Assembly (NCBI GenBank): GCA_038890975.1
Contig: JAWAEZ010000001.1
Location: 1,819-65,144 of the forward strand
Direction: 5' to 3'
Length of the DNA stretch: 63,326 nucleotides
Origin: Candidatus Woesearchaeota archaeon
Lineage (GTDB): Archaea; Nanobdellota; Nanobdellia; Woesearchaeales; CAIVOO01
Both the position numbers and the translations under genes were made by a program. This document shows, piece after piece, positions 36,665-61,801 of this stretch (its first letter is position 1; every line of letters starts with the position of its first letter). Under the pieces are notes generated by a model that worked only from the letters and a program-made list of their open reading frames with translations, did no database searches and was not told where the DNA came from.

Positions 36665-36799
36665 AGTGTTTTATTTTTTAATTGTTAAACCTTCACATCA
36701 TTAATAAAGTGACATGTTAAATTATCAGCTACAGTATTTGATTCTTAAACAAGTTTCGCCCTGTTATGAAAATATTTAAATATTACCCTATTATAAGTT

Positions 36800-36855: not shown

Positions 36856-36877
36856 TCTTCTTAGAGGTGAGATAAAT

Positions 36878-37530: not shown

Positions 37531-37642
37531 AGCGGGGAGGGGGACTCGAACCCCCGAATAATCGCTGTCCGCTTTTCATCAACATTGTATGTTTCAACAC
37601 AGCGTCTGCAGGCGATCGCCTTAGCCGCTTGGCTACCCCCGC
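37531..37642 (-). tRNA. tRNA-Cys(GCA) with a 39-nt intron at 37/38
   Basis: Reverse complement reads GCGGGGG-TA-GCCA-AGCGGCTA-AGGC-G-ATCGC-CTGCAG[39 nt]A-GCGAT-TATTC-GGGGG-TTCGAGT-CCCCC-TCCCCGC-T. Intron 37567-37605. G37 fits tRNA-Cys. TATA-like ttttataaag lies ~25-34 nt upstream. Confidence 0.8.
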
Positions 37643-45573: not shown

Positions 45574-48500
45574 TTATATAATACCTAACGCTTTGAATAT
45601 GGGTTCGTCTATGCTTTCTTCTTTAGAAGGGATATTTCCTATTTTAGCAATTATTTTTGTTTCGCAGTCAGGCGCCTGTATTATTTCTTTACCGCTCATA
45701 CTAAAAACATTCATATCACTATTCGGACATTTTTGATAAATTTCAAAACTCATCTTGTCCTTAATTTTTTCTTCAACCTGCGTTCCGTCTATATAAAATG
45801 AAGGTACATCCCACTTAATTTTAACTGATTTTTCGTTAAGTGATTGTTTAGTAACTGACACCAAACCTGGGGGGATATCATTAACCGATGTACCTAAAGG
45901 CGTTTTTAAAAAAGAAGTGCTTTCTTGGTCTTTCCTATCAATAGCTGTGACACCGTAATAATATGAAATATCATCTTCCACAGAAAGAACATAATAAAAC
46001 TTACCAGTTTCTTCTTCGTAGATTAGCTGGTCCTGTTTTATTTCCATCAAACTTTGATCCCCATCTTTTGAATATTTAACTGCTAAAACATAATCACAAA
46101 CATTATTTTGTAAATTGCACCGCACCCCCACAAATTTATATACACTAATTGCTGAACCAACATCAATATTTTTTACTAGATTTATGTCTGGTGAAGATTT
46201 TGCTTTTTCTAAATCTAAATTATTGAATGCTCTCTGTGATTCATAAATCTTGTAACCTACAACATCTCCAGCTACACTTTTGTCCCAGCTTAATAATAAA
46301 AGTTGTTTTCTTCTCTTTAAATCCTCTGCTTTGACATCCTCTACCGGTGGTGGAGGGAGGTCTTTAGTCTCTAAAGCGAATCTATAAACCAAAGGTGTTT
46401 CCTCAAGTTTTCCATCCATTTGGTTTATGCCAAATACTTTATTTTTCTTACTAACAGCGCAAATTTTAATTATGTTGTTCTGTGAAATGTCACATTTAGG
46501 TAAATTCGCCTTATCTTTCTCAAAAGATAACTTTTTTTCTTTGTAATATCTCAAGATGTAATTTTTCTCTTCTAGGTAATTATTGAAAATCATTCCATTT
46601 GTTCTTATTTCCTTGGGGAATATTGTATTGAAAACTCCTGAGTATAATTCCAAAGAATAAGGAATATTGGGCGCAACTAATAAAAAATCTTTAGGGGTTA
46701 TTTCAGTTACTACTATTTTTAAATTTGGAATGTTTCTAATTTCTGGAATTTCACAATAACAACTATCTGTTTGGGAATCTCTACAATCCTCATACCTTTC
46801 TACAAAATCATTAATAAAAGCTTCTTCTTTTCTCTCACAATAAGTATACCACCCATTATCGTTTGTTGTTTGTCCTTGCTTTTTAAAATAAAAAGAAAAA
46901 TCTTCATTCGATCTTGACTTTTCTGAAAAACATTCTAAAATATTTTTTTCGTTGCGGCACTGCTCAAAATATTCTCTTGAGTAATCTTCCAATAATCGGT
47001 ATTCAGAAAAATCTTTATCCACTTCTACGCTGAAAGAAGGGAAAACGTTATAAGCGCCATATAATATTTCCTCTTCCGGAGAGTTTTGCACAGAAATAGG
47101 CGGACAGAGTTCTGGGGAGCCATATGCGAATGCTTTTGGTATGACTACAATAAAATTTGCTACTTTCCTATCAACACTGCTTTTAAGTACTTTGTTTTGT
47201 CCTTCATAATTGTAATACATCTGTGTAGAACCTCCGCCATCAAGGTCTAGTGCGTCTTGACAATTTTCGTTATCGCGTAAATAATCTAAAAAAACTTGTA
47301 TATTTCCTCCACTCTCAGTAGTTATAAGTTTTAATTTATTTTCTTTAGTGATACATACACCTGTTAATCTACTTCCGGAATCTTCTCCAGCTTTCAAAAT
47401 TCCATTCACAGCATATTGTATATCGCTGTTTTCTCGTAGTAATACCTTCTTAGCTTCTTCAACATTGGGCACTTCCAAAATTTTTGGTTGCCCATTTTGT
47501 ACCACAAAATAACCTTTTTTCTTTGTATAATAGAAGGGACTAATAATTTTTCCATCCTCTATATAAATCCCTTGTGGCCTTCCATAAAGCTCATAGTTAC
47601 TAACCATACCTTCATACTCATTGTAATTCGGATGCTCGTCAGTGTCTTTAACTTGGTTCCCTCTCTCAAAAAAAGCGGCATTCACCGCTGCCACCACGTT
47701 CAATTGATTCCACTTTATATCAGAAATAGATAATCTACAATCGTTATTACATTTTTTTCTTGTTCTATCCATTATAGTTTTAGCTGACATTGTTCTTACA
47801 TCGAAATAATTAACATCTATTTCTATTATGTTCATCAAACCAAAATTTGTTTGTTTTGTTGTTAAGGAAATCGCATCTTTAGGGATTTTTTTAATTTCTG
47901 TTTTTTTATAATCTTCTTTAATGTAATTTGTAGGGTCTAAGATAATTTGTTGGTCGTTATCCAGAGTTATGGCATTATGTGTTTTGTATAAAGTTGTTGC
48001 GCCTTCCCCGCTTCTCTCCCTTTCCAACACACTATCTTGAAGAGGCCATTGACATAAATTTTTATCTTTACTTTTTGCTCGCTTCCAATAATTACTGCCG
48101 TACTCAAAATGCCACCCCTCATGATGGTAATTAACCCATCCTGCTTGGCACGCAATTTTTATTTTTTCTTCATAAGAAATATGCTCGCGTGATGGGTCGT
48201 TCGGATCGCACTCCACCCAAATATCCATTGCATAACCATTATAATGAGGGCAATGTTTAAAGTTTTCTTCTGTGTACCCCTCTTTCATAATTTTACCTGC
48301 ATCGTCTCTAGGAGGACAGTTTGTTTGAGGATTTTTTTCACTGGCGTCCCACTTCTCTTTGTATATCTTAAGGGATCTAAAGGGCGAAACTATTTTTAAT
48401 TTACAACCTCTTTGTTTGAACAGGGTGTAAAGCGGATAAATTTGTCTCACTGCTCCTTCTTTCAAAACGCAACAATCACCTGGTTCGCTGAAACAAACAT

Positions 48501-50670
48501 TTGTATTTACGCAAATTTTTTCCCCTTCAATTTCCGGGATAGGAACTAAATCTTGTCTTGAAAGGTCCTCATTTAAAACACCACCACCATAAACATCTCC
48601 TGGTTGGCAGTTTTCATTTACAAGTGAAGAGAATTTCTCTTCTCCGATACCTTGTAAAGATTTTATCCCTCCTTCGGTAACTAAAACTGCACTTAATAAA
48701 CAACCAACACCTTGATATCCATTTTGTTTATAATCACTAAAAGATTTTATTCCTTTACAAATATTGTTTTTAGATTCGTCATCTTTAAAACTTTTAAAAT
48801 ATTTCTGTCCTTCTTTTATGTACATAGAAGAAGTCCCCCCACCATCAATTTTAATTGCGTAGTTACAGTAATTTTTTAATTGGTCCGCTAAATTTCTCAA
48901 AGTTATATCATTTAGATAAACAAATAACCCTATTGTTCCATCTTTTCCGATACATATACCATTTTTTTCTTTTCCTTTAGGGTGTTTTTTTTCATAGGCA
49001 TATTCTGGATCTTTATCATTAAAAGAAGAAACTTTACCTTCATCAACCAAAAGCACCCCTTGTAATGCGTATTTAATATTTGTTTTAGAAGGAAATAATC
49101 TATTAAATTGTTGTAAAGACACAATACCAAATTCGTCATTATTCGTTATATAAAAAACATGACGTGTTTCACAAAAATCTAAATTTTCATAAGGAAAATG
49201 TTGTTTTCCTTCTTCAATGTATAAACAAGTGGAGCCTACACTTTTAGTAGAACTGCCCCTTACTAAATTAGTATAGCCAAAAAAACCCCCATTCGTTGCC
49301 GCCGCTATTTTTAGACCCTTATTATTGGCGCTGTCAACAATTGTTTTAAGTGTAGCGAGATCCTGCCCAGTAATTTCCGTAGCACTACGTATTTTCAAAT
49401 ATTTTGGGGAAGATACCCATATCATCTTTAAATCGGAAGTTCCAGAATTTTGATTGCAATCCCCTTCTAATATTTTTCCTGTTGCTGCTTCCACGGGGCA
49501 TATTTTAAGTTTCCCATTTTCTGCTGCTTCCACAAGAACAAAAATGTTTTTGTTAGGGTAACCTCTTAACTCGTGTGACGAAGCAGTTCCCACAACAATT
49601 TGTTCCGTGTTCTCATCTATTTTGTTTCTTATATAGCAATGTTGATGGCCGGAGAATATTGCTATTATATCGTTATTCTCTTTAGCAATTGTTTGAAGAT
49701 TATTATTATACACATCATCCCTGCAGCTGGGGGAAGTTTTAATTGCTGGGAGATGAGTTATTATTATTGTGGGTTTATTCTTATTTTTTTCCAAATCTTT
49801 TTTAAGCCACTGGACATTTGCGTACTGGTTCTTATAATCAAGGAAAACAAAGTGGTAACCTTTGTAATCAAAAGAGTAAGAGTGAGCCCATTCGCCTTCT
49901 ATTGCTATGTTTTGTGGTTTTTTATCTGCCCAAAATTTATTGTAAGAACTTATCGTTTCTTGCTTATCATATTCGTGGTTTCCTGTTGTAGGGAATATTG
50001 GATAATTTTTTAGTTCTTTATACTCGGCAAAATTAAATTGCGTATTTGGCAAACAACAAGAAAAATCGCCTGCGTGCAATATTATTTCTGGGTCTAGTTT
50101 TTTAATTGTGTTGGATAAATCGCTACTGCTTATTCCCTTACTTGTGTGAGTATCGCTTATTACTACGAATCTGAATGCTTCTGCGTTGCTAGAAAGAATT
50201 ATTGAACAGAATGTTATAGTAAAAATCATAACTCCTACTTTTTTAAGATGTTTTCTTCTCAATAGAAAAATAATAAAAAAAATGAATATCACCAACAAAA
50301 ATGAAAAAATTATTATTTTCAAAATGATGTTTTCTTTTTTTACTTTTGTTTCTTCGCCTGATAAGTAAAATTCTTCCGCAAAAGAATTTGCCTCTTCTTC
50401 ACTATACCCCGCTTTTAAATATTTTTCTTTTATTTCTTCTTTTGTCAAATAGTTACATTTTCCTTTACAACATACCTCATTAACAAAGTCGCTGGTATTT
50501 TTTATTATTATTCCTATGCATTTTTGGTAATCTCCGCAAACTGCGATTCCTCCTGCCTCTGAACATGTTACTCCGTAGGCGTTTATTTCCTGCTGCGCAG
50601 AAATAGTTCTATTTATTAAGATAACAATTGCCAAAAATAATAATGTTTTAACAAAATCTTTGCGTTTCAT
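45574..50670 (-). CDS. 1698-aa secreted/membrane multidomain protein: Cys-rich N-terminus, 2 TM helices, metallophosphoesterase, NAGPA-like domain 1, M15/VanY-like peptidase, NAGPA-like domain 2, Fn3-like modules
   Basis: Signal MKRKDFVKTLLFLAIVILINRTISA. Metallophosphoesterase motifs VISDTH, HAGDF, GNHEYD, ITHLP, SGHQHC (nt ~49516-50175). NGGFF...IDGGGTSSMY (~48676-49428) and NAAFF...LDLDGGGSTQMY (~47131-47868). SPFRS...HYNGYAMDI...EGWHFEY (~48085-48468). C-terminal PPPPVED...LSWDKS...VGYKIY. SD AAGGTGA and an ATGA overlap with the SLT gene. Confidence 0.8.
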   Translation of the reverse strand: MKRKDFVKTLLFLAIVILINRTISAQQEINAYGVTCSEAGGIAVCGDYQKCIGIIIKNTSDFVNEVCCKGKCNYLTKEEIKEKYLKAGYSEEEANSFAEEFYLSGEETKVKKENIILKIIIFSFLLVIFIFFIIFLLRRKHLKKVGVMIFTITFCSIILSSNAEAFRFVVISDTHTSKGISSSDLSNTIKKLDPEIILHAGDFSCCLPNTQFNFAEYKELKNYPIFPTTGNHEYDKQETISSYNKFWADKKPQNIAIEGEWAHSYSFDYKGYHFVFLDYKNQYANVQWLKKDLEKNKNKPTIIITHLPAIKTSPSCRDDVYNNNLQTIAKENNDIIAIFSGHQHCYIRNKIDENTEQIVVGTASSHELRGYPNKNIFVLVEAAENGKLKICPVEAATGKILEGDCNQNSGTSDLKMIWVSSPKYLKIRSATEITGQDLATLKTIVDSANNKGLKIAAATNGGFFGYTNLVRGSSTKSVGSTCLYIEEGKQHFPYENLDFCETRHVFYITNNDEFGIVSLQQFNRLFPSKTNIKYALQGVLLVDEGKVSSFNDKDPEYAYEKKHPKGKEKNGICIGKDGTIGLFVYLNDITLRNLADQLKNYCNYAIKIDGGGTSSMYIKEGQKYFKSFKDDESKNNICKGIKSFSDYKQNGYQGVGCLLSAVLVTEGGIKSLQGIGEEKFSSLVNENCQPGDVYGGGVLNEDLSRQDLVPIPEIEGEKICVNTNVCFSEPGDCCVLKEGAVRQIYPLYTLFKQRGCKLKIVSPFRSLKIYKEKWDASEKNPQTNCPPRDDAGKIMKEGYTEENFKHCPHYNGYAMDIWVECDPNDPSREHISYEEKIKIACQAGWVNYHHEGWHFEYGSNYWKRAKSKDKNLCQWPLQDSVLERERSGEGATTLYKTHNAITLDNDQQIILDPTNYIKEDYKKTEIKKIPKDAISLTTKQTNFGLMNIIEIDVNYFDVRTMSAKTIMDRTRKKCNNDCRLSISDIKWNQLNVVAAVNAAFFERGNQVKDTDEHPNYNEYEGMVSNYELYGRPQGIYIEDGKIISPFYYTKKKGYFVVQNGQPKILEVPNVEEAKKVLLRENSDIQYAVNGILKAGEDSGSRLTGVCITKENKLKLITTESGGNIQVFLDYLRDNENCQDALDLDGGGSTQMYYNYEGQNKVLKSSVDRKVANFIVVIPKAFAYGSPELCPPISVQNSPEEEILYGAYNVFPSFSVEVDKDFSEYRLLEDYSREYFEQCRNEKNILECFSEKSRSNEDFSFYFKKQGQTTNDNGWYTYCERKEEAFINDFVERYEDCRDSQTDSCYCEIPEIRNIPNLKIVVTEITPKDFLLVAPNIPYSLELYSGVFNTIFPKEIRTNGMIFNNYLEEKNYILRYYKEKKLSFEKDKANLPKCDISQNNIIKICAVSKKNKVFGINQMDGKLEETPLVYRFALETKDLPPPPVEDVKAEDLKRRKQLLLLSWDKSVAGDVVGYKIYESQRAFNNLDLEKAKSSPDINLVKNIDVGSAISVYKFVGVRCNLQNNVCDYVLAVKYSKDGDQSLMEIKQDQLIYEEETGKFYYVLSVEDDISYYYGVTAIDRKDQESTSFLKTPLGTSVNDIPPGLVSVTKQSLNEKSVKIKWDVPSFYIDGTQVEEKIKDKMSFEIYQKCPNSDMNVFSMSGKEIIQAPDCETKIIAKIGNIPSKEESIDEPIFKALGII

Positions 50671-51860
50671 CCGTCACCTTGGCTTGTTATTTGCAGTTGT
50701 TCAAATTTATGTTTCAACGCCATAACTCTTTCAACATATCTCTCTGTTTCAGCGGGGATTTGTTGTAATGTTCCTTCTGCCGCAATTATATCTTCCCATT
50801 GAACCTCTTCAGGATTTTTAGAAATTTTTTCTGCCACTTTTTTGATTTTTGTTTTGTTTAATCCTCCGTTATAGGTTGCAAGAGCGAATCTTATATTATC
50901 TTTATATCCACCATAAACTTTATAAGCAAGATATTTCAGGTATTTAACTGCGGCTTTTATACTTTCTTCGGGGTCTGTTCTATAATCGTAATCTTCGCAA
51001 GGTTTTTTTCCTCCACCGCCCTTGCTACAAAGACCGTAACTTGCCGCTGTTCCAGGCATAAATTGTGTTAAACCAACAGCACCTACATAACTTCTTGCAT
51101 TAGGATTCCCCCCTGACTCTTGCATTATTAAAGCAACAATAAGCGATTCTGTAATGCCTGGAATCTCAGATGCTCCACCCTCTTCTTCTATTGCTTTTCT
51201 TATGAATTCTCCATATTTTAGGTATATCTGCTTTAGTTTTTCTTCTTCGCTACCTCTTATTTTAATATCTTGAGCGGTATTATAAGTTGTGTAACTAACC
51301 CCTGGCGTTATTACTCCTTTCTTTATTTCTAAACTTAGGGGAAGTTTTGCGTCGCCTGTTACTAATGTCTTTGGAGAAGAAGAATCACCGATGTTTACTA
51401 CGCTTATTTCATAATTTTTGTCCGTAGGTATCATAAGAGAAGGGGATAAACGAAAATATTCGTCTAATAAATTATTTAAGCTTTCGCCATATGCATTTTG
51501 AAGATTTTTATTTTTAGTATTATCCGCGTCTGGGATGCATTTGTCGTTGTCTAACTCCCAAACCGCAAAACCTGCATATCTTTGGCAATCCTCTGGCTTC
51601 TCTGGAAAACCTCCCATTCTGGCTGTTCTTAGAAATGCTTCTTGGGCTGCGAGTTTGGCTGATGTGTCGACATAAAATAGTGTTTCTTCTGCATCTTGGT
51701 ATGAAGAAAATAAAAGTACGGCCTTTAAACCTATGTTCCCTGCGAATTGTTTTTGCTCTCTTATTATGTAAAAAAGCATCGTGACCTGTGCTATTATCAG
51801 TCCTGTTACTACTATTATTATGAAAAATTTCGCTTTTTTATTTTTTATTATTTTTTTCAT
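50667..51860 (-). CDS. membrane-anchored lytic transglycosylase (SLT / GH23 domain)
   Basis: N-terminus KNKKAKFFIIIVVTGLIIAQV. SLT motifs LIVALIMQESGGNPNARSYVGAVGLTQFMPGTA...YNGG (nt ~50856-51233; putative catalytic Glu codon 51117-51119). Confidence 0.8.
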   Translation of the reverse strand: MKKIIKNKKAKFFIIIVVTGLIIAQVTMLFYIIREQKQFAGNIGLKAVLLFSSYQDAEETLFYVDTSAKLAAQEAFLRTARMGGFPEKPEDCQRYAGFAVWELDNDKCIPDADNTKNKNLQNAYGESLNNLLDEYFRLSPSLMIPTDKNYEISVVNIGDSSSPKTLVTGDAKLPLSLEIKKGVITPGVSYTTYNTAQDIKIRGSEEEKLKQIYLKYGEFIRKAIEEEGGASEIPGITESLIVALIMQESGGNPNARSYVGAVGLTQFMPGTAASYGLCSKGGGGKKPCEDYDYRTDPEESIKAAVKYLKYLAYKVYGGYKDNIRFALATYNGGLNKTKIKKVAEKISKNPEEVQWEDIIAAEGTLQQIPAETERYVERVMALKHKFEQLQITSQGDG

Positions 51861-52351
51861 TGTTTATCAAACGCATAAGAGGAGGCGGTTATTACCTTAC
51901 GCCTTGGTGTAGGAAATCTAATTTCAGTAACTTTTATATGAGATGACAAAGAATCGCAATTATTCGTTAATGGGGATATTACAATTATTTCGTTTTTTTC
52001 TTCAAAATTAAAGGATATGCAAGATATTGATGAGTATATTTTATTTTTTTCTAAAGTTTCAATTATTTTGTCTTTTACTTCTTTGTTTCTTTTTAAATCG
52101 TAATCAATAAGGTAATCTGCTATTGTTTTTTGTTCGTCTACTGGTGTTTTTAAAATATTGAGCAGTTCCATTGTTTTTTCTTCTTTTAACAATTCATAAT
52201 ACATCGCGTAGTCAATCCTTGTAGAAACAGTTAATGCGATGTAAATTACTAAGAAGACCAAAAAATAAGCTATCACCGCCCACACATCTATTATTAACGA
52301 TGTCGCTATTCCTTTTTTATTTTTGATTATTTTATTTTTCACTAGTTTCAT
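51857..52351 (-). CDS. pilin-like protein (class III signal peptide-like N-terminus), 164 aa
   Basis: MKLVKNKIIKNKKG/IATSLIIDVWAVIAYFLVFLVIYIAL. ATGA overlaps on both sides. Confidence 0.6.
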   Translation of the reverse strand: MKLVKNKIIKNKKGIATSLIIDVWAVIAYFLVFLVIYIALTVSTRIDYAMYYELLKEEKTMELLNILKTPVDEQKTIADYLIDYDLKRNKEVKDKIIETLEKNKIYSSISCISFNFEEKNEIIVISPLTNNCDSLSSHIKVTEIRFPTPRRKVITASSYAFDKQ

Positions 52352-52896
52352 GTTTTAGGCACCAAAACAACGAAATTTATAAAAGCGGGGTACATTTCTC
52401 CGTTATCTAAAACAATAACATATCTTCTAGTTTCTATTTTTTCCACTTTTCCTATTCCTACAAAAAAAACATTTGATAGAGGAAGCCAATTAAAATACTT
52501 TTCTCTGTTGTAAAATAACTCAATTTTTTTAACTTCTTCTTTTCCTTCTTCTTTTTTGACATTGTAGGTTAGCGTGATGTTTGCAGCTATCATATTATTA
52601 ATTTCGCCGAAAAACATTGCTTTTTCTAGAGTCGTTTCTGATAGTTTATTTATATCAACTACTCCATAAATAGTCCTTCCCGTGCTTGGGTCGGTATAAG
52701 GCAATGCGTTTGGGTTGTAGAGCATGTATCTCACGAAAATTTCTGCTTCTTGTTTTGTTGTATCTAGCGTTTGCGAATCGTAATAGCGCGCTAAAAAGTA
52801 AATAAAAAAAAGCATTAATAATACAAAAAGTATTCTCGCAGACCAATAAACAGCGTCGTAAGCGTTTATTCCCCTTTTTGATTTTGCAATTTTCAT
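52348..52896 (-). CDS. pilin-like protein, 182 aa
   Basis: MKIAKSKRG/INAYDAVYWSARILFVLLMLFFIYFL. Confidence 0.6.
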   Translation of the reverse strand: MKIAKSKRGINAYDAVYWSARILFVLLMLFFIYFLARYYDSQTLDTTKQEAEIFVRYMLYNPNALPYTDPSTGRTIYGVVDINKLSETTLEKAMFFGEINNMIAANITLTYNVKKEEGKEEVKKIELFYNREKYFNWLPLSNVFFVGIGKVEKIETRRYVIVLDNGEMYPAFINFVVLVPKT

Positions 52897-52912
52897 ATTT
52901 TCATTTTAAAAA

Positions 52913-53839
52913 TTATTTACCAAAATATTCATTTATCGCCCCGCCTATTTCATTAATTATTGTGCCTCTGTTAAGAGATCCTATTTCTATTCTTAATATT
53001 GTAGTTGGTTGCGAATCAAAATCGCCTATATTAATTGTAGCTACCAAATTTTGTTTGTATATCCGATTTTTTATAATGCATGCCAATCTTCTTGATTTTC
53101 TTTCGCTGTTGATGTAAATTTTTGCTGAAGAATCCTCTATATAATCTACTCCTCTAATTTCAATGAATAGTGCTGTTTTTTTATTTTGAAATTCTTGTTC
53201 AAATTTTTCTTTGTCTGTATAGTATCGTGCTTCTAAACCGGGCTGTAAAGAAGGTATGAGGGATTGTTGAATCAATTTATTAATTTCTTCTTTATTTTTT
53301 TTATCAAAAAATTGTAAACCCTGTCCTGTGCTGTCGTAAATAAAAATTAACTTTTCGTCTTTTGAAACATCAATTTTTTCGCAGTTCATAGATTCTAAAG
53401 TTAAATCGTTATTGTTTATGAAAAAATCTGGTGGTGTCTTTTTAAAAGAAAGAACTGTCCTGTTTTGGTCTTCTAGCGGATAAATTTTCTCTTTTGGTAT
53501 GATAAAATTCAAAGCTAAGTCCTTTGGAAAAAAATAATAAGTGTTTGAATCTTTTGTAACATCTTCGTCAATAGAATAAACATTTATCCTATTATTTAAA
53601 AACCCGTACACGAATCCTCTCAAATCTGCATAACTTAAAAAAACAGCGCCAGGAGATGCTTCTATTGCCTCCATAGTGAGTGCTAAATCTCTTGCTGTTT
53701 TTTCTTTTAATAATCTTGTTCCTGTTCCTACTGAAACAGCATAAGAAATGGCTGCTGTTGTTACCATAATCGCTAGAAAAATCTCAATAATTATTTTATA
53801 AAGCTCTTTCATACCTCTTTTTTGCTTAAAAATAAGCAT
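52913..53839 (-). CDS. pilin-like N-terminus plus a C-terminal amidase_3-like domain whose zinc ligands appear substituted
   Basis: KQKRG/MKELYKIIIEIFLAIMVTTAA. C-terminal half has LIFIYDSTGQG (compare iDpGHGG), ALFIEIRGV (compare SiHaNa), TILRIEIGSLN (compare vLvElGFlsN) and IGGAINEYF. Confidence 0.55.
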   Translation of the reverse strand: MLIFKQKRGMKELYKIIIEIFLAIMVTTAAISYAVSVGTGTRLLKEKTARDLALTMEAIEASPGAVFLSYADLRGFVYGFLNNRINVYSIDEDVTKDSNTYYFFPKDLALNFIIPKEKIYPLEDQNRTVLSFKKTPPDFFINNNDLTLESMNCEKIDVSKDEKLIFIYDSTGQGLQFFDKKNKEEINKLIQQSLIPSLQPGLEARYYTDKEKFEQEFQNKKTALFIEIRGVDYIEDSSAKIYINSERKSRRLACIIKNRIYKQNLVATINIGDFDSQPTTILRIEIGSLNRGTIINEIGGAINEYFGK

Positions 53840-53874
53840 ATCAATTTAAATTAAAAATATCTTCTTTTAAAAAT

Positions 53875-54735
53875 TTATTGTTTTACGACGCATTTAACTA
53901 TTTCTCCTTCTTTTGATAATGTGCATGCTCCTTTGCAAACTTTATCACAAATATCTAATGGAACTTTGGAACAATCAATATTTTGGCTGCAAGGGATACA
54001 TCTTCCTATATCTTGTTCTTCTTCCCAATAGCAGGTTATGCCTTCTTTATCGAAACCGCAAGGGTCTCCTAAACATTGTCTTTTGTGTAATTCATAATTT
54101 TCTTCATTTTTGTCAATACTAAAACTAAATTCTGGCTGACCAAAAGTTGTTGATTCAGAAAGAGTTAAAGAATACTGTTCGCATTTAAAAGTTGAGAAAC
54201 AATTTTTGCATTTACCTGTATAAATTATACATTTGTAATTCGTACAAAGATTTAGGTCTTCAATTCCTTCACAAGATATACCCTGTTCTGATTTGATTAT
54301 TTCTTTGTTAATTTCAAAATTGATGTACTGTACTCCGGCATATGAGTAGTGAAAGTGCATAGGGGGAGTTTCTTTTTTGAAACAATCGATATTATAAATT
54401 TTTAAACCGCAACCTTTTTTAACGCCACTCATAGAAATGTCGTCTTCTTTACAAAGGCATATACAATCTTTGGAACAATAGTTATCTTCTGAGTTAGTTG
54501 TTATTTTAAAATCTTCACCTATTTGAATGGGTACAGTAAATTTTCCTTCATTAACATTTTTGAATAAGTAAACAATTCTTTCGTAACTTTGCTCTGTTAC
54601 ATAATCCGGCCTCTTGATTAAAAGATTATAAGCTTTTGTAATAAGTGGAAGAATGACAAAAGTTATAACGATAAACGCTATAACAACGCCCATTAGTGTT
54701 GTTATAGCGATTTCTATAGATTTCTTGTTAATCAT
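53875..54735 (-). CDS. pilin-like N-terminus plus a large Cys-rich ectodomain (22 Cys by my count)
   Basis: MINKKS/IEIAITTLMGVVIAFIVITFVIL. The internal ATG at 54735 is preferred because the track start at 54771 overlaps the upstream gene. Confidence 0.6.
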   Translation of the reverse strand: MINKKSIEIAITTLMGVVIAFIVITFVILPLITKAYNLLIKRPDYVTEQSYERIVYLFKNVNEGKFTVPIQIGEDFKITTNSEDNYCSKDCICLCKEDDISMSGVKKGCGLKIYNIDCFKKETPPMHFHYSYAGVQYINFEINKEIIKSEQGISCEGIEDLNLCTNYKCIIYTGKCKNCFSTFKCEQYSLTLSESTTFGQPEFSFSIDKNEENYELHKRQCLGDPCGFDKEGITCYWEEEQDIGRCIPCSQNIDCSKVPLDICDKVCKGACTLSKEGEIVKCVVKQ

Positions 54736-54736
54736 T

Positions 54737-55003
54737 TTATGTTTCTGAAACACAACAAACCTTACCTTCACCGCAATCGAATCTCCCTATATTAACTGTT
54801 CCGGGAGGACAAACTTTACCTTCTAAACACTGACCATTCCTTGCAGAACAACTTATTATTCCTTCCGCTGCTTTTGAAGATTTTTTTGTTTCACTATAAA
54901 ATATGTACGCCAATATTGCTAATACAATAACTGCTAAAACGAAACCTACAACAACCCAATTAACTTCTGCCTTCCTTGATTTTGTGTTATTTTTCACTTT
55001 CAT
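54737..55003 (-). CDS. mini-pilin paralog 5 (88 aa), six-Cys head
   Basis: MKVKNNTKSRKA/EVNWVVVGFVLAVIVLAILAYIF...CSARNGQCLEGKVCPPGTVNIGRFDCGEGKVCC. Internal ATG at 55003 preferred over the track start at 55090. Confidence 0.65.
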   Translation of the reverse strand: MKVKNNTKSRKAEVNWVVVGFVLAVIVLAILAYIFYSETKKSSKAAEGIISCSARNGQCLEGKVCPPGTVNIGRFDCGEGKVCCVSET

Positions 55004-55289
55004 ATTTAATACAACACGCCTGAAGTTTTTCGCCGCTATCGCCAATACTTTCACAACCTTTTGTGTATATGATATATTCACTCCCCTCACACTTCTGTCC
55101 TGGGGGCGTGATGCATCTTCCTCCTTGGGCTTTGCATGGTTGCGAAGTTGACTTAGTAAAAATTTGTGATTTAGAAGAAAAAATGAATATCAAAACAGCC
55201 AAAACAACAAGAGAGATAACAGCGATTATTATAATATTTATGCTTAGTTCTGCTGCTATTTTTTTAATTTTTTTATTATGTTTGTTCAT
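54987..55289 (-). CDS. mini-pilin paralog 4 (100 aa), six-Cys head
   Basis: KKIKKIA/AELSINIIIIAVISLVVLAVLIFIFSSKSQIF...CKAQGGRCITPPGQKCEG...GCES...ACC. Confidence 0.65.
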   Translation of the reverse strand: MNKHNKKIKKIAAELSINIIIIAVISLVVLAVLIFIFSSKSQIFTKSTSQPCKAQGGRCITPPGQKCEGSEYIIYTKGCESIGDSGEKLQACCIKYESEK

Positions 55290-55524
55290 TTTTTTCTATA
55301 GGCATACAACATTTTCCGCTGTCACATTTCCCCCCTAATAAAGGTGCGTGGGTTGAAGGGCATCTTTCTAAACAGACCCCTCCTTGGGCTTCGCAACTTG
55401 CTGTTGTTCTTGAAAATACCCCAAACTTTCCACTAAATATTATTATTGAAACAACAAGAGCTATTAGGAGAATAATCACCACAACTATCATAGTTAAAGT
55501 TAGTTCGGCACCTTTTTTATTCAT
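55276..55524 (-). CDS. mini-pilin paralog 3 (82 aa), six-Cys head
   Basis: MNKKG/AELTLTMIVVVIILLIALVVSIIIFSGKFGVF...CEAQGGVCLERCPSTHAPLLGGKCDSGKCC. Confidence 0.7.
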   Translation of the reverse strand: MNKKGAELTLTMIVVVIILLIALVVSIIIFSGKFGVFSRTTASCEAQGGVCLERCPSTHAPLLGGKCDSGKCCMPIEKNEQT

Positions 55525-55526
55525 TT

Positions 55527-55823
55527 TTATGTAAATTTACAACAACAACATTTACCAATCCCTCTTGTCTGCGTATCTCTGCAAGTGAAACCTTCCGGAA
55601 AATTTACTTCTTCGTCTCCTTCTAAACATATATCCGAACAATAACGGCCCGTCCCAGGTATGTCACAAACTTTGGGGTTATAAACTTTTGATGTTTCTTC
55701 TGAAGTTTTCTGAAAAAAACCCATCTTCCCAGAGAATATTATAACCACTACAACAAGAGCAACTATTAAAATTACTGCTACAATTATCAGATTCATGGAC
55801 AATTCTGCGGCTTTCTTTCCCAT
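55527..55823 (-). CDS. mini-pilin paralog 2 (98 aa), eight Cys ending in CCCC
   Basis: MGKKA/AELSMNLIIVAVILIVALVVVVIIFSGKMGFF...CDIPGTGRYCSDICLEG...FTCRDTQTRGIGKCCCC. Confidence 0.7.
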   Translation of the reverse strand: MGKKAAELSMNLIIVAVILIVALVVVVIIFSGKMGFFQKTSEETSKVYNPKVCDIPGTGRYCSDICLEGDEEVNFPEGFTCRDTQTRGIGKCCCCKFT

Positions 55824-55835
55824 TTTATTCTACTA

Positions 55836-56144
55836 CTATTCTACCCCTCCTGCCCCTACAGTCACACAACAAAAACCGTCTGAATCTTTGTTGTTGAAAT
55901 TAAACTTTCCGTCCCCGTTTAAATCGCACGCCCCCCAAGAAATTTTGTCGTAAGCGCCGTTACAATCAGTTTCTACCGCAACGCATCTTCCTGCATTGCC
56001 GTACTTAGTTGTACATTTGTCAGATTCCCTTACAAATATTCCTGTTCTCCCAGTAAAAATTATAGACAATACTACGAGAACAAGCAGTCCGAGTGCTGCT
56101 ATTATCACAACATTTAAAGACATTCCTTGCGCTTTTTTTACCAT
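55836..56144 (-). CDS. mini-pilin paralog 1 (102 aa), six-Cys head; candidate major subunit
   Basis: MVKKAQG/MSLNVVIIAALGLLVLVVLSIIFTGRTGIF...C..C..C..C..CC. It is the only gene in the operon preceded by a ~100-nt gap and by a strong SD (GAGGTGATtagATG). Confidence 0.7.
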   Translation of the reverse strand: MVKKAQGMSLNVVIIAALGLLVLVVLSIIFTGRTGIFVRESDKCTTKYGNAGRCVAVETDCNGAYDKISWGACDLNGDGKFNFNNKDSDGFCCVTVGAGGVE

Positions 56145-56147
56145 CTA

Positions 56148-56226
56148 ATCACCTCTTTACCCGTTATTATTACGGATTAATGGAAAGGTATCCACTTGTT
56201 ATTTAATAATAGTAGTATTTAAATTT
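56148..56226 (-). promoter_or_regulatory. putative internal promoter plus Shine-Dalgarno for the mini-pilin array
   Basis: Minus strand reads GAGGTGAT (56148-56155) 3 nt before the ATG. A/T-box aatttaaata (56216-56225) lies ~70 nt upstream of the start. This is the only sizeable intergenic gap in the 18-kb operon. Confidence 0.4.
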
Positions 56227-56246
56227 TTTGAATATTATTTAAATGG

Positions 56247-57230
56247 TTAACATACCTTACCTTTGTAGCAGCAGCTTGTGTACTGGGGCTTATCGTTAAT
56301 AGGTGTTTGGATAATGAGTGATTCGCATTCTAATAATTTTCCTTTATCATCTTTTATTTTACAGAGATTGGAATTACAAGAATCTACAAGCGGGTAATCG
56401 TAGTTTTCTATATGGATTATGTTATATTTTTCACAATCATTCTTGCTATTCTCAATAATGCTTTTACAACTATAGCAAGATGTTGTTTTTGTTGTTGTTG
56501 TTTTAAACTCGTACGCGCATCTAGGAACTTCTTCTTTATTGATTATATCCTTTACAATAGCGAGAGATACACAATAAGATGGATTTTTATTGTTTGCTTT
56601 TTCACAATTTGCAAAACCGCATTTAAGTTTTCCTTCATCAGACCAGCTTACACAAAATTTATGACTTTTTTCCGGGTTACAATAACTATTTATATCTTCT
56701 TCACTCATTTTTTCGCAATCAACAATTTTTTTAATTAAGTTTATGTTTCCAGTAGCCACTTCTGCCCCCTTCGTGTTCGGATATTTTTCTGTTAGCTTCT
56801 GAAATTTTTCAAGAAATTTTCTTAGTTCGTCTTGAAAATCTTGAATATTGGTTGTTCCTTCATATTGGAGTTTAGAGAATTCTTCGCTTATTTTATAAGC
56901 TTCACAGTTTGCTTCTGCTTCTCTTTTTATTTTTGTGTATTTGTTTATTAAGAGTGAATTCTCTTCTTTAAGATTTCTTATTTCTTGTTCTATGCTCAAT
57001 TTGGCTTGGCAAGAAGTGGGCAGATTGACTGATTTTTCTAAAAGCTCAGCAAACCTTTCTTCTGCTTCTTCACTTGTTCCTACACTTTTTGCTATGTCTG
57101 AAAAAAAATTTTTTGCAGGCGCATCTTCTTTTAAAAAAAAATTAAATATTATGACTGCAACAACAACGATAACTATTACTATTAAAGCTGCATTTTTTAT
57201 TTCGTTTGAAACTGCTTTTTTGTTTTTCAT
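56247..57230 (-). CDS. pilin-like N-terminus, helical middle, Cys-rich C-terminal domain (18 Cys by my count)
   Basis: MKNKKA/VSNEIKNAALIVIVIVVVAVIIFNF. C-terminus ...TTTTKTTSCYSCKS...SCCYKGKVC. SD GGAGGG lies inside the upstream micro-ORF (TAAATG junction). Confidence 0.6.
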   Translation of the reverse strand: MKNKKAVSNEIKNAALIVIVIVVVAVIIFNFFLKEDAPAKNFFSDIAKSVGTSEEAEERFAELLEKSVNLPTSCQAKLSIEQEIRNLKEENSLLINKYTKIKREAEANCEAYKISEEFSKLQYEGTTNIQDFQDELRKFLEKFQKLTEKYPNTKGAEVATGNINLIKKIVDCEKMSEEDINSYCNPEKSHKFCVSWSDEGKLKCGFANCEKANNKNPSYCVSLAIVKDIINKEEVPRCAYEFKTTTTKTTSCYSCKSIIENSKNDCEKYNIIHIENYDYPLVDSCNSNLCKIKDDKGKLLECESLIIQTPINDKPQYTSCCYKGKVC

Positions 57231-57383
57231 TTACCCTCCTATTTGTAGTATTGAAGCTAATTTATTCCAAAGGTCTGAAGCATTCCCCGATAAAATTGTG
57301 ATAATAACAATAAGAGCAATTATTAAAAGGAGAATTATAACCCACTTAGCAATCTCGTCCCAAGTTATTGAAGCTTTCCCCAT
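57231..57383 (-). CDS. unlisted 50-aa micro-ORF, Flp-like minimal pilin or single-TM peptide
   Basis: Own translation: MGKA/SITWDEIAKWVIILLLIIALIVIITILSGNASDLWNKLASILQIGG*. It falls below the track's length cut-off. Its stop TAA abuts the next ATG, and its last codons supply that gene's SD. Confidence 0.5.
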   Translation of the reverse strand: MGKASITWDEIAKWVIILLLIIALIVIITILSGNASDLWNKLASILQIGG

Positions 57384-57425
57384 TTTTAAATTACAAATTT
57401 TTGTTTTATTAAAATATTTTGTTTT

Positions 57426-58310
57426 TTATCTTGTTCTGAGGGATATGGGTAAATATTGGCACCCTAACTCTTTAAGTGTTTCTTCATTTTCGTAAGGTAA
57501 GAAGGATATCATCGCTATACTATCCGAGTTCCCCCCACTAAATATAGATGTTAATAATTCTAAACCTCCAACCACAACCGCCCCTCCTGTTGCCAACATA
57601 AACGAACCTCCAGCCAGAATCACTGCTATGCCTGTCCCTGCAGCAGAAATAACCCCCATAGATATAGCCCCAACCAGTTTATTTTTCTCAGCGCCAAGAG
57701 TAACTAACTTACTAAAAAAAATTTTTACTTCGTCAATAGTGCTCAATTTTTTTTGATAAATGAACACGACCGCATATTTTTTAGATGTGTCTATAACCCC
57801 CTCACCTACTTCTCCACTAATTTGTTTGGCTATTCCGTTGGTAAAATAAGTTACATAATCAACATTTTCAAAAGGAACATTATTCTCTAACAAATATCTA
57901 TTAAAATCTTTTATTTCCTTATTTTTTTCTTTAAAATCTATTAATGCGTAAACTGCGCAATAAGTTCCTGACTCTTGAAAAAGATCAATATTCCCTCTCC
58001 CAAAAACATCCCACGCTTCTGCCATCGTAATGGCTATCTCCTTTTTCATTTTCTCTGCTTGTTTTGGTATCTCTGGATTACCAGTTAGTGTTAATTCTAG
58101 AAGTGGGCATTCTATCGTGTAAGGTCTTAGTTCATAACCTTTAATGGTTGTTAGGGAATATAAAAGAACGGAGTTTTTGCATTGCCTCTTGTGTATCTCC
58201 CTCTCGTTTGCTTCTTTAACTTTTGAAATAAAAGTTAAATAAAATATCGCTGCAACTATTACAATTAAAAACCCTGCTATTATCTTCGTGCTAAGCGCTT
58301 TTTTGTTCAT
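57426..58310 (-). CDS. pilin-like N-terminus plus a C-terminal Gly/Ala-rich hydrophobic segment
   Basis: MNKKA/LSTKIIAGFLIVIVAAIFYL. C-terminus GAISMGVISAAGTGIAVILAGGSFMLATGGAVVVGGLELL. ATG at 58310 preferred over the track start at 58331. Confidence 0.6.
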   Translation of the reverse strand: MNKKALSTKIIAGFLIVIVAAIFYLTFISKVKEANEREIHKRQCKNSVLLYSLTTIKGYELRPYTIECPLLELTLTGNPEIPKQAEKMKKEIAITMAEAWDVFGRGNIDLFQESGTYCAVYALIDFKEKNKEIKDFNRYLLENNVPFENVDYVTYFTNGIAKQISGEVGEGVIDTSKKYAVVFIYQKKLSTIDEVKIFFSKLVTLGAEKNKLVGAISMGVISAAGTGIAVILAGGSFMLATGGAVVVGGLELLTSIFSGGNSDSIAMISFLPYENEETLKELGCQYLPISLRTR

Positions 58311-58311
58311 A

Positions 58312-59028
58312 TTAGTTAAGCAGCATTTCACATCCTAATTTTTCAATTTCTTTATCTTTTACCAATACTACTGCTGAAAAAGGTGTGCCTCCTATACTCA
58401 TTGAAGGAATATTAAAATATTTCTTCATTTCATCAGGAAACTTTAAATTAGGAGAATCTACAATCGCTACGAAAACAACATAATAATTTGAGGATGTGGA
58501 TATTGGCTCTTCAAAATAATATCTTTTCTCTTCATTAAAAGATAAAAAATCTGAATAAGAGAATTGAGCTCCTGTTGGAATATTCTTATCAAGCCAATCT
58601 TTCATATTTTCTATTGTGAGACCTTTTTTCTCAAAATAAATAATTGAACATAACAAACATGCTTGGTCGTCGGCGCCAATAAATTTATTCGTAAAATCAT
58701 AATATTTTCCTTTTCCCATTTTGTACCAACAATCATACATAGCATCTGCTATTTTTCTAGAAATATAATTTTTAATTTTATCATCTTCTTTCGGCAGTTC
58801 TGAATTTTTTATGTATATGTATTGCATTGGGCAATCTAAATTAAATATGGTCTCTTTACCTCCTATTTTCGCGGCTTGCTCCGCTTCAACACTTAACCTA
58901 CAATACTCTCTTATATTTGTTTTTTTTAAATAAAAATTTATTTTGTTAGTAAGAACTAAAATTATTATAAATACTACTATTAGGATTATTAATGTCAGTA
59001 GGCTTACCTGCACTGCTTTTTTTCTCAT
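58312..59028 (-). CDS. pilin-like protein, 238 aa
   Basis: MRKKA/VQVSLLTLIILIVVFIIILVL. Confidence 0.6.
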   Translation of the reverse strand: MRKKAVQVSLLTLIILIVVFIIILVLTNKINFYLKKTNIREYCRLSVEAEQAAKIGGKETIFNLDCPMQYIYIKNSELPKEDDKIKNYISRKIADAMYDCWYKMGKGKYYDFTNKFIGADDQACLLCSIIYFEKKGLTIENMKDWLDKNIPTGAQFSYSDFLSFNEEKRYYFEEPISTSSNYYVVFVAIVDSPNLKFPDEMKKYFNIPSMSIGGTPFSAVVLVKDKEIEKLGCEMLLN

Positions 59029-59165
59029 CTAAGCACCTTCAAAACATAATTCCTAAATATTATCATTAGTATGATAAAAATAACTATTGCTATTGTTATC
59101 CACATCAAGGTTGTCATAAGCCCTGTTTCTTGTTCAATTTCTTGTGCCTTTTTATTTAACTGCAT
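59025..59165 (-). CDS. 46-aa single-TM micro-protein (short version of the 74-aa track ORF)
   Basis: MQLNKKAQEIEQETGLMTTLMWITIAIVIFIILMIIFRNYVLKVLR. The longer track ORF would overlap the upstream gene by 94 nt. Confidence 0.45.
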   Translation of the reverse strand: MQLNKKAQEIEQETGLMTTLMWITIAIVIFIILMIIFRNYVLKVLR

Positions 59166-59713
59166 AAGGATAATTCCACCGTCAGTGTTTGGGGGTATAA
59201 CGGAAGATAATAAAAATCCTTTTGGATGTACTGGCTCTCCTCTATACATTTTTCAATACCATAAGATATGTGTATTTGGGGATTTTCTTTGCTTATATAC
59301 GCCATAAACTCATATTTTTTATTCCAAACTTTTAATGTGTTGTTGAGCAAATTTTCTATTATTGTTGACAAATAACTACAGACATAACTTTCTTCTATAT
59401 AAATATCCCCTTCAACACCTCCTCCGCAGATTCTGCAACTAGTAGTTTCTTGCCCTGCGGGAGCGCACCTACCGCAATCTATCAGCAAAGTGCTAATTCT
59501 ATCGTTATTACAATTCGTAGAGGTTGAAAGTAACGCGCCTAAGATATTAGTTGCCATTTGTTTTTCTGAAAACTCTCTTTTTTGTTCTGTAACCCTTGTA
59601 CGTTTCATAGTATTGCTAACTAAAATTAGTATTCCTATTGATAATATTATAACTACTATTGCTATTCCCAACATCTCCGTCTGAGATTTTTTTTTATTCC
59701 TAAATTTTATCAT
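59156..59713 (-). CDS. pilin-like protein, 185 aa, with a 4-Cys cluster
   Basis: RNKKKS/QTEMLGIAIVVIILSIGILILV. Cys cluster CNNDRISTLLIDCGRCAPAGQETTSCRICGGG. Confidence 0.65.
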   Translation of the reverse strand: MIKFRNKKKSQTEMLGIAIVVIILSIGILILVSNTMKRTRVTEQKREFSEKQMATNILGALLSTSTNCNNDRISTLLIDCGRCAPAGQETTSCRICGGGVEGDIYIEESYVCSYLSTIIENLLNNTLKVWNKKYEFMAYISKENPQIHISYGIEKCIEESQYIQKDFYYLPLYPQTLTVELSLCS

Positions 59714-59715
59714 TT

Positions 59716-60237
59716 TTATCTTTGTTTGACATAAACAGCTACATTAGCGTAACCGAATGAAAAACGCATTTCTATAGGATTATAAATAGCAATTGGTATT
59801 TGCGTTGTTATATAACCTGAAATGTTCCCGCCAGTAAAATCGTAAATATTCCATTCCTTTTTTACAGGATACATCGAATAAATTGTTATATTTGCAAAAC
59901 CAAAAGAATTAAAATAGTGTTGAATAGCTCCTTGGTCTTTTTCTTCCATTATAATTTTTTGCATTGCTTCTATTTTATAAACATCAAAACAGCTAAATTT
60001 TATAACTTCTAATATAGAGCATTGAAGTTCTGGAAGAAAAGAAACCGTCTGGGCCACTCTTATTGCTCTTGAAATTATATCAACTTCTTGTTGCTCTTTT
60101 ATAGATGTCTGGCTGTACCTTGACCAAAAAATCATACCCATTATTACTAAAACAAAAAATATCAAAAGCACTGCTACACTCTCGCCTATTTTTATTTGCG
60201 ACTTCTTCTTTGCTTTCTTTATTTTTATAAACCTCAT
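59716..60237 (-). CDS. pilin-like protein, 173 aa
   Basis: KKAKKKS/QIKIGESVAVLLIFFVLVIMGMIF (Q at +1 and E at +6). Confidence 0.65.
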   Translation of the reverse strand: MRFIKIKKAKKKSQIKIGESVAVLLIFFVLVIMGMIFWSRYSQTSIKEQQEVDIISRAIRVAQTVSFLPELQCSILEVIKFSCFDVYKIEAMQKIIMEEKDQGAIQHYFNSFGFANITIYSMYPVKKEWNIYDFTGGNISGYITTQIPIAIYNPIEMRFSFGYANVAVYVKQR

Positions 60238-60259
60238 TTTTTATATAGCTTATATTTTT

Positions 60260-61300: not shown

Positions 61301-61301
61301 A

Positions 61302-61790: not shown

Positions 61791-61801
61791 TTTTAATCGG
61801 C

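Follow-up and report, generated by a model that had tools for sequence, protein, structure and literature searches.

A giant protein with predicted envelope-hydrolase domains in a conserved gene cluster of a Woesearchaeota-type archaeon

The sequence analysed here is a stretch of 63,326 nucleotides (the window) from contig JAWAEZ010000001.1 of assembly GCA_038890975.1, attributed to Candidatus Woesearchaeota archaeon. On its minus strand lies a single gene whose product, hereafter the giant protein, combines a signal peptide, a cysteine-rich module and two transmembrane helices with a calcineurin-like metallophosphoesterase (MPE), two phosphodiester-glycosidase-like (NAGPA) domains and an M15-type zinc peptidase (Table 1). 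A conserved cluster ends with this gene: its neighbour encodes an SLT lytic transglycosylase, the stop of which overlaps the start of the giant gene by 4 nt, and upstream of this is a run of genes for small anchored proteins, many of them rich in cysteine.

A giant gene at an archaeal locus

The giant frame runs from ATG to stop through 1698 sense codons without interruption, and the plus-strand translation of the same interval contains many stops. Given the base composition of the window (32% GC), a run of 1698 codons would be free of stops by chance with a probability of about 1e-63. The gene order SLT, giant gene, RPA, YdjM recurs in L001 (NCBI GCA_964485195.1), in L002 and L004 (both Logan), in L003 (ENA) and in the JGI contigs L067 and L068; contig CAZAIK010000001.1 of L001, listed separately as L066, bears the syntenic giant-gene locus. 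Scaffolds of equal length occupy the matching genomic position in these independent assemblies (L001/L002, L003, L004, L068 and L067), and three proteins (P0002, P0003 and P0007) are orthologues of the giant protein.

The unusual length of the gene, and the exclusively "bacterial" domain content of a protein in an archaeal bin, might suggest an assembly or annotation artefact – either several genes fused into a chimera or a contaminating bacterial contig. The frame is nevertheless uninterrupted, the GC-content of the region equals that of its flanks, and the same scaffold with archaeal flanking genes (RPA, YdjM and Topo VI) is present in independent NCBI, ENA, Logan and JGI assemblies. Because the synteny recurs in other genomes, fusion and contamination are ruled out, and we regard the probability of an artefact as negligible. 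The open frame together with the positional orthologues thus bears out an earlier first-pass annotation of this DNA, made from the letters alone, in which the gene was read as one real open reading frame. An origin as a provirus was also considered and rejected: a scan of viral contigs contained no relatives of the giant protein and GC is uniform, observations that likewise argue against recent transfer.

Archaeal chromosomal genes found in the window include those for both subunits (A and B) of Topo VI, RPA with DUF2240, a RIO kinase, a KH/Dim2 protein, Cdc48, GatD/E, deoxyhypusine synthase and Mre11/HerA, along with over-long tRNA genes of the intron type. The nearest matches to Topo VI-B are from an "uncultured archaeon" (79%) and from metagenome-assembled genomes of Candidatus Woesearchaeota (69%). 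The host is an archaeon of the DPANN/Woesearchaeota type.

The family to which the giant protein belongs was uncovered by an exhaustive HMMER search of 1.8 billion representative proteins. Word-index searches returned little: the full protein found itself and P0002, the M15 segment found none, and an alignment query found three proteins. Among close relatives in GTDB, the single protein matched nothing and the alignment matched one genome, which was already known; a scan of metagenomes contributed just two further orthologues, both partial. The scaffold was present in 1 of 185,579 species-representative genomes, and in more distant Woesearchaeota the giant gene is not at this position.

Table 1. 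Features of the giant gene and the adjoining cluster, with coordinates in the window
Feature	Residues	Coordinates	Strand	Basis
Whole gene, predicted giant modular envelope hydrolase	1698 aa	45574..50670	-	Open frame; orthologues P0002, P0003, P0007
Sec-type signal peptide (...ISA/QQ)	1-25	50596..50670	-	Hydropathy peak at aa 6-24; kept in P0002, P0003
6-Cys module, C-x3-GG-x2-VC...CC-x3-C	~30-75	50446..50583	-	Cys positions; kept in P0002, P0003
Two transmembrane helices, predicted hairpin anchor	112-142 and 145-163	50182..50337	-	Hydropathy; same layout in P0002, P0003
Calcineurin-like metallophosphoesterase (MPE)	166-350	49621..50175	-	PF00149 and five motifs
NAGPA-1, phosphodiester-glycosidase-like, in variable cassette position	412-668	48667..49437	-	Pfam 40 bits; DGGGT 609-613
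LAS-fold M15 (VanY/LdcB-type) zinc peptidase	720-885	48016..48513	-	S762, R765, H809, D816, E851, H854
NAGPA-2, phosphodiester glycosidase domain	940-1185	47116..47853	-	Pfam 65.8 bits; DGGGS 1144-1148; R1168 in DRKVANF
Conserved Cys-containing domain	1195-1440	46351..47088	-	Also in P0004, P0009, P0011
C-terminal region, possibly two Fn3-like beta modules	1441-1698	45577..46350	-	Weak Fn3 matches; conserved in orthologues
SLT lytic transglycosylase, N-terminally anchored	397 aa	50667..51860	-	Pfam SLT E 1.3e-24; same-position orthologues
About 18 small anchored proteins, co-directional, many Cys-rich		51857..63319	-	Class-III-signal-like N-termini; collinear orthologues L001, L003, L068

Domains, cassettes and neighbouring genes

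At the N-terminus, hydropathy and cysteine positions agree with the signal peptide, Cys-rich module and two transmembrane helices proposed in the first-pass annotation. The six cysteines of the module are C36, C45, C51, C67, C68 and C72, and a Pfam search assigned it to no family. The second helix terminates in a signal-like AEA site; downstream of residue 163 the hydropathy profile contains no hydrophobic helix. We note that the module resembles the C-terminal Cys modules of small proteins encoded upstream (54737-56144, minus strand; CEAQGGVC...CC and CKAQGGRC...CC), and judging from this pattern it may be a docking or knot domain shared by the giant and the small proteins.

In the MPE, PF00149 matches residues 166-346 at 67 bits (cutoff 21.5; E 4e-18), and all five metal-binding motifs are where they had been read: SDTH (172-175), GDF (201-203), GNHE (230-233), THLP (305-308) and GHQH (341-344). 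Similarity to individual proteins is weak, the matches being to the purple acid phosphatase 6GJA (E 0.002) and to LpxG.

The peptidase was the least secure element of the first-pass annotation. The domain scores below the Pfam VanY cutoff of 25 (PF02557; 13.5 bits within the whole protein, 18.2 bits as an isolated segment), and as a single sequence the segment matched nothing in the PDB and gave only noise at E~10 in a tblastn search of phage genomes. In the HMMER search its relatives, with E values from 1e-12 to 1e-26, comprise proteins of about 340 aa together with several giants, and four of them (P0009, P0011, P0015 and P0019) exceed the Pfam VanY or Peptidase_M15 thresholds (27.5-30.7 bits). 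An alignment of 16 sequences defines a subfamily signature, S-x-YRS, C-x-P, HCPH-x2-G-x-A-[VI]-D and E-x-WHFEYG, with S762, R765, H809, D816 and E851 invariant and H854 nearly so. Searched against the PDB, the profile built from this alignment matches VanY-like and LdcB structures with the motifs aligned (E 2.5e-9 to 9e-8), and VanXYc, VanX and Ply500 at E 2e-5 to 5e-4. An AlphaFold2 model based on the alignment reached a pLDDT of 83.3 and a pTM of 0.79 (a single-sequence model of residues 676-900 was unusable, with a pLDDT of 43). When this model was compared to known structures with Foldseek, ranks 1-17 were all LAS peptidases (probability 0.85-1.0, TM-score 0.39-0.50), followed by Hedgehog N-domains, which are the classic distant relatives of the LAS fold.

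The active site of LdcB is formed by Arg120, His153, Asp160, Glu204 and His207, in the pattern H-x6-D...E-x-x-H (PMC4087270). In the giant protein the corresponding residues are R765, H809-x6-D816 and E851-x2-H854, with H-to-D and E-to-H spacings identical to those of LdcB. Since family profile, structural model and motif matches all agree, we accept the M15 identity despite the sub-cutoff Pfam score: judged by modelled fold and active-site motifs, the domain is an LdcB/VanY-type LAS peptidase of a divergent subfamily. The LAS-type assignment of the first-pass annotation therefore holds by these three lines, though not by Pfam VanY alone, and the zinc ligands it named (H809, D816 and H854) are exact in number and align with the catalytic positions of LdcB and VanXY. 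The closest structural matches are LdcB- and VanY-like; the LdcB, VanY and VanXY enzymes (for example 4MPH, 4OX3 and 4MUR) share the fold at a Foldseek probability of 1.0 and the same active-site set: the Arg of SxxRS, H-x6-D and E-x-x-H (PMC4087270). In contrast to these carboxypeptidases, with which identity is just 16-22%, the domain has its own signature (HCPH, C-x-P, WHFEYG and conserved Cys pairs), carries an insertion of about 20 residues and sits within a giant protein.

In species genomes, full-length matches to the M15 subfamily (loci L013-L051) come almost entirely from DPANN archaea (Nanoarchaeota, Woesearchaeota and Pacearchaeota) or from candidate-phyla-radiation bacteria (CPR; Peribacteria, Kerfeldbacteria, Saccharibacteria, Gracilibacteria and Magasanikbacteria); Desulfovibrionaceae and Brevibacillus match at a short C-terminal motif only. 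This sharing hints at a common gene pool of "attack" hardware among episymbionts.

Two NAGPA-like domains had also been predicted, and each copy on its own passes the PF09992 cutoff of 25, the first at about residues 456-623 and the second at residues 991-1176 (scores in Table 1). Searches of the PDB with either single copy returned no match, so that profiles were needed: a profile of 14 sequences finds 3OHG, a bacterial DUF2233 structure (E 6e-13), and the vertebrate uncovering enzymes 6PKI (E 1.6e-12), 6PKG and 6PKU (E up to 8e-9). In the structure of human NAGPA (2026) the DGGGS loop, containing D286, is invariant, and R316 and T260 are phosphate ligands (PMC13474241). The DGGGS of NAGPA-2 aligns with the loop of 3OHG and 6PKI, its R1168 aligns with the Arg of PRKVTN in 3OHG, and a Thr is kept within RLTGVC; equivalence of these residues to human R316 and T260 is by alignment and not by superposition. 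NAGPA-1 has DGGGT, a conservative Ser-to-Thr change, and shows KN and no Arg; in the alignment both the Arg and the Thr appear to be absent. Judged by these residues NAGPA-2 looks catalytically complete, and NAGPA-1 may differ in specificity or serve for binding. The relationship to the uncovering enzyme and to bacterial DUF2233 (6PKI, 6PKU and 3OHG) is one of common family, by Pfam and by profile, with the DGGGS loop and, judging from the alignment, the Arg kept in copy 2 (PMC13474241); it differs in that two copies are present per chain, fused to a phosphoesterase and a peptidase, and in that the substrate here cannot be a lysosomal mannose-6-phosphate glycan.

For the C-terminal third the evidence is less clear. 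Residues 1195-1440 gave no credible match in the PDB; a match to T4 RNase H at about residues 1227-1286 (E 0.0014) spans 60 residues, lacks functional logic and was judged spurious. The first-pass annotation had placed two Fn3-like modules at the C-terminus, a claim that is unproven: Pfam returned no match for residues 1441-1698, and the sole matches of the orthologue profile, to Fn3 domains of fibronectin, titin and NCAM, are non-significant (E 0.26-1.4). From the pattern W...Y-x-I-Y...YYYGVTA-x-D an Fn3-like identity is plausible but not established.

Pairwise mapping and Pfam searches of the positional orthologues reveal a fixed scaffold with a variable slot. The orthologues share the Cys module, both transmembrane helices, MPE, M15, NAGPA-2, middle domain and C-terminus, and diverge at residues ~400-685. 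This slot is filled by NAGPA-1 in the window protein, by a GH3 domain (E 1e-51) in P0002, and by a CE4 polysaccharide deacetylase in P0003 and L068, which are otherwise alike. In P0002 the M15 domain is dead, the core of the zinc site being deleted and E-x-W-H mutated (SASGDSITID; NGAVFEY). P0007 also has GH3 in the slot; it lacks Cys module, transmembrane helices and MPE, and carries a CE4 domain after the signal peptide instead.

Looser relatives join the same modules to further murein hydrolases: SLT and NAGPA in P0008; VanY, SLT and the middle domain in P0009; Amidase_3, C39, M15, VanY, Glucosaminidase and NlpC/P60 in P0011; MPE and two NAGPA domains in P0004; T4SS_pilin (PF18895), a NAGPA of the NAGPA-2 type and MPE in the 649-aa P0010; and NAGPA, Ig domains and an MPE of the purple-acid-phosphatase type in P0115. 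Besides the window protein, four architectures contain both NAGPA and MPE (those of P0004, P0010, P0115 and the P0002/P0003 orthologues), and the alternative cassettes of the relatives (GH3, CE4, SLT, Amidase_3, Glucosaminidase and NlpC/P60) are all murein- or GlcNAc-directed (GlcNAc, N-acetylglucosamine). Of note is P0010, which ties the NAGPA and MPE pair directly to a pilin module. Among relatives with resolved domain order, out of the 1.8 billion representatives searched, the exact string MPE, NAGPA, M15, NAGPA is confined to the window protein. The first-pass annotation did not recognise the architecture from any described protein; this is correct for the exact string, but the protein is now seen to be one of a small family whose members keep the scaffold and swap cassettes, and large extracellular murein-degrading proteins of Woesearchaeota and Pacearchaeota have already been published (PMC8204110, PMC9723730, PMC12352652).

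The adjacent SLT has intact motifs (QESGGNP and GLTQF) and keeps the catalytic Glu. Its anchor domain (residues ~5-186) is homologous, at E 2e-18 to 3e-10, to the N-termini of VanY-type M15 proteins of about 340 aa (P0044, P0093, P0117, P0015 and P0009); because these N-termini are homologous, one anchor appears to carry either SLT or M15 depending on the genome. In P0009 SLT and M15 are fused.

Most of the small upstream proteins have an N-terminus that is short and basic and leads into a single hydrophobic helix (as in MNKKGAELTLTMIVVVIILL), and many terminate in 6-Cys modules. Pilin identity was considered for these proteins; hidden Markov models lend it no support, and the basic and hydrophobic N-terminal pattern is all that favours it. 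Weak Pfam matches to "defensin" (E 3e-4 to 7e-4) were likewise taken to indicate a Cys-rich knot without implying homology. The protein at the far end of the cluster (505 aa; 61802-63319, minus strand) contains three Cys-rich repeats (NGYETDVDCGG-x-DC-x-KC...), after which come a transmembrane helix and a long tail rich in Lys and Glu. Pfam matches nothing in it, and the stretches of L001 and L003 examined contained no orthologue.

A possible function at bacterial walls

The first-pass annotation had taken the giant protein to be aimed at envelope polymers. As biochemistry this remains the best inference; what changes, given an archaeal host, is whose envelope is meant. Murein is not known in DPANN archaea, according to the available excerpts of Castelle et al. 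(PMC8204110), and because the host is archaeal, the target wall is most likely that of another organism. We judge it somewhat probable, by a little over an even chance, that the giant protein and the SLT constitute a contact-dependent toolkit with which the wall of a bacterial host or prey is opened or stripped.

Such a toolkit might operate as follows. With the signal peptide cleaved and the two-helix hairpin as anchor, the Cys module and an array of about 1500 residues of enzyme domains would both lie outside the cell, and the small anchored Cys-rich proteins encoded upstream probably build the contact structure. The SLT would cut the glycan between N-acetylmuramic acid (MurNAc) and GlcNAc, and the VanY/LdcB-type peptidase would cut stem-peptide bonds containing D-Ala. 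NAGPA-2, and perhaps NAGPA-1, would cleave GlcNAc-alpha-1-phosphate glycosidic bonds, which are those of the linkage units of teichoic acids and secondary polymers and of poly(GlcNAc-1-P) polymers; the MPE would then remove or cleave exposed phosphate. Wall teichoic acids and other secondary polymers are joined to murein by a GlcNAc-1-P-6-MurNAc linkage, and enzymes with a metallophosphoesterase fold (PhoD) degrade teichoic acid. Exchange of the cassette at residues ~400-685 between lineages presumably tracks differing chemistries of the target wall.

Several observations weigh against this account. Enzymes of the LdcB/VanY type are carboxypeptidases that trim stems and leave cross-links uncut, so that lysis is not automatic, and in the giant protein taken alone this domain misses the Pfam VanY cutoff; in orthologue P0002 its death shows the activity to be dispensable in at least one lineage. 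Characterised NAGPA enzymes remove terminal GlcNAc, whereas the GlcNAc of the linkage unit is substituted, which makes the idea of a teichoic linkage as substrate an extrapolation. NAGPA-1 apparently lacks the phosphate-binding residues. Pfam recognises no wall-binding domain (LysM, SH3b, PG_binding, SLH or similar) in the giant protein, and the small upstream frames match no pilin model in Pfam or NCBIfam, the best being PilV (E 0.032) and TadE (E 0.15). Finally, 63 kb of sequence is too little to exclude a murein-like wall made by the archaeon itself.

An unlikely but serious alternative is that the surface enzymes scavenge nutrients, digesting free debris of bacterial walls (necromass) and so releasing GlcNAc, amino acids and phosphate to an auxotrophic archaeon with a small genome, without attack on any specific host. 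MPE and NAGPA would indeed free phosphate and GlcNAc, enzymes like the GH3 (NagZ-like) and CE4 cassettes of the orthologues typically serve in recycling or processing, peptidases of the LdcB type act in trimming (PMC4087270), and a recycling "shunt" in DPANN archaea is discussed in the available excerpts of Vigneron et al. (PMC9723730). A membrane anchor, and a tight operon with about 18 proteins resembling those of surface structures, nevertheless better suit a contact apparatus; no sugar or peptide transporter genes were seen adjoining the cluster, and rapid cassette exchange more closely resembles the tracking of targets.

It is also conceivable, though improbable, that the enzyme-like domains chiefly bind wall glycans or peptides for attachment to a partner, catalysis being secondary or lost. 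The dead M15 retained in P0002, the residues missing from NAGPA-1, the long stalk-like C-terminal region with its (weak) Fn3-like signatures and the absence of a classical binding domain, the role of which could be taken by catalytic folds, are all in keeping with an adhesin. Set against this are the catalytic motifs of MPE, M15 and NAGPA-2, which are intact in the window protein and invariant or nearly so across the family, and the catalytic Glu retained by the adjacent SLT. More improbable still is remodelling of the archaeon's own envelope, in which the enzymes would serve as autolysins acting on a murein-like or phosphodiester-linked polymer during insertion of the surface structure encoded upstream. 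Bacterial SLT genes within pilus, type IV secretion system and flagellar operons open the wall locally, and the layout of the operon is analogous to that of the SLT-containing pilus and secretion operons of bacteria. Pseudomurein, which lacks D-Ala and the beta-1,4 MurNAc bond, does not, however, offer bonds recognised by enzymes of the M15 and SLT types; no Mur or pseudomurein genes were seen among the open reading frames scanned across the window, and that murein is not known in DPANN archaea (PMC8204110) counts against this explanation as well.

The contact-dependent toolkit can be extended to a more speculative and rather doubtful proposal, in which the cluster of about 23 kb (51857-63319 plus the SLT and giant genes) would specify an undescribed contact organelle with which a DPANN archaeon parasitises bacteria, members of another domain. 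A filament or adhesion structure, built of small anchored proteins that bear Cys knots at their tips, would position a membrane-tethered "wall drill". In the drill, NAGPA and MPE would form the first system to cut the GlcNAc-1-phosphate-MurNAc linkage made by LCP ligases, thereby removing teichoic acids along with other polymers of the wall; the murein would next be opened by M15 and SLT. Host range would depend on which cassette (NAGPA, GH3 or CE4) occupies the slot.

Known systems and other features of the window

Peptidoglycan hydrolases in DPANN archaea are already known, and the locus fits an existing hypothesis and overturns none. In the available excerpts, the murein-degrading capacity of Woesearchaeota and Pacearchaeota is read as a sign of bacterial hosts or of predation (PMC8204110; PMC9723730), and archaeal peptidoglycan hydrolases, in which Nanoarchaeota are rich, are shown experimentally to kill bacteria (PMC12352652). 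Closest to the giant protein are the fam00969 murein-lytic-transglycosylase giants (Castelle et al. 2021, PMC8204110; also Vigneron et al. 2022, PMC9723730), which, as far as these excerpts go, come from the same archaeal group, are likewise giant, secreted or anchored, carry bacterial-type murein-degrading domains and have the same proposed role in attachment to, or attack on, bacterial walls. The window protein differs in having no SLT domain detectable by Pfam, the SLT being the product of the adjacent 397-aa gene; its relatives P0008 and P0009, unlike the window protein, do fuse SLT to the same modules. The set of MPE, two NAGPA domains and M15 is not mentioned for fam00969 in the same excerpts (PMC8204110, PMC9723730).

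The modular peptidoglycan hydrolases of Strock et al. (2025; PMC12352652) are, in the text available, similarly archaeal, signal-peptide-bearing, domain-shuffled, patchily distributed and read as weapons against bacteria. [quoted passage not shown] It is membrane-anchored, with four catalytic-type domains, and its gene lies in a conserved chromosomal operon and not on a plasmid.

Predatory and epibiotic bacteria offer a further comparison: Bdellovibrio has DD-peptidases, CE4 deacetylases and lytic transglycosylases, and Saccharibacteria and other CPR bacteria have pili and hydrolases. There, too, peptidase, glycan-cleaving and deacetylase activities associated with surface filaments are directed against the murein of another cell, but the activities are spread over many proteins, whereas here they would reside in one archaeal polypeptide together with phosphodiester-directed domains.

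Against this background a number of features are not described in the available excerpts of PMC8204110, PMC9723730 and PMC12352652: the MPE-NAGPA-M15-NAGPA string, the recurrent pairing of NAGPA with MPE, the swapping of cassettes among positional orthologues, the separate SLT within a conserved anchored Cys-rich cluster of about 23 kb, and an M15 subfamily nearly restricted to DPANN and CPR. Whether and how DPANN archaea such as Woesearchaeota live on bacteria has been argued mainly from isolated SLT genes. The locus provides a concrete, conserved and experimentally tractable gene set, in which three catalytic domains with intact active sites can be expressed separately, and the natural series of cassettes (NAGPA, GH3, CE4 and dead M15) allows target specificity to be compared. 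Should NAGPA-2 and MPE cleave GlcNAc-1-phosphate linkages in walls, this would provide a function for prokaryotic NAGPA/DUF2233, and also a new tool and antibacterial activity against the wall glycopolymers of Gram-positive bacteria.

Taxonomic labels of some related contigs were disregarded. The low-GC contigs L008 and L009 (Topo VI-B 67% identical to that of this genome) and L066 (with the syntenic giant-gene locus) are labelled "Methanosarcinales", probably an error of taxonomy or binning; matches to Topo VI-B at 51-58% identity also occur in records labelled "Vicinamibacteria" or "Acidobacteriota" (L010 and L012), on high-GC contigs (~0.67).

Elsewhere in the window, a second and unrelated metallophosphoesterase, Mre11-like, is encoded near a HerA (DUF87) helicase (7376-8569 and 10124-11644, minus strand) and belongs to ordinary archaeal DNA repair. 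Three tRNA genes are over-long, at 88-112 nt (1067-1165, plus; 13469-13558, minus; 37531-37642, minus), as would fit archaeal introns; for one, the ARAGORN call of tRNA-Tyr with the anticodon "ata" is probably a miscall induced by the intron. A fluoride riboswitch (crcB motif; 36797-36866, plus strand) scores 43.4 bits, above the gathering threshold, and downstream of it lies a frame of 139 aa (37087-37506, plus strand) that presumably encodes a fluoride channel.

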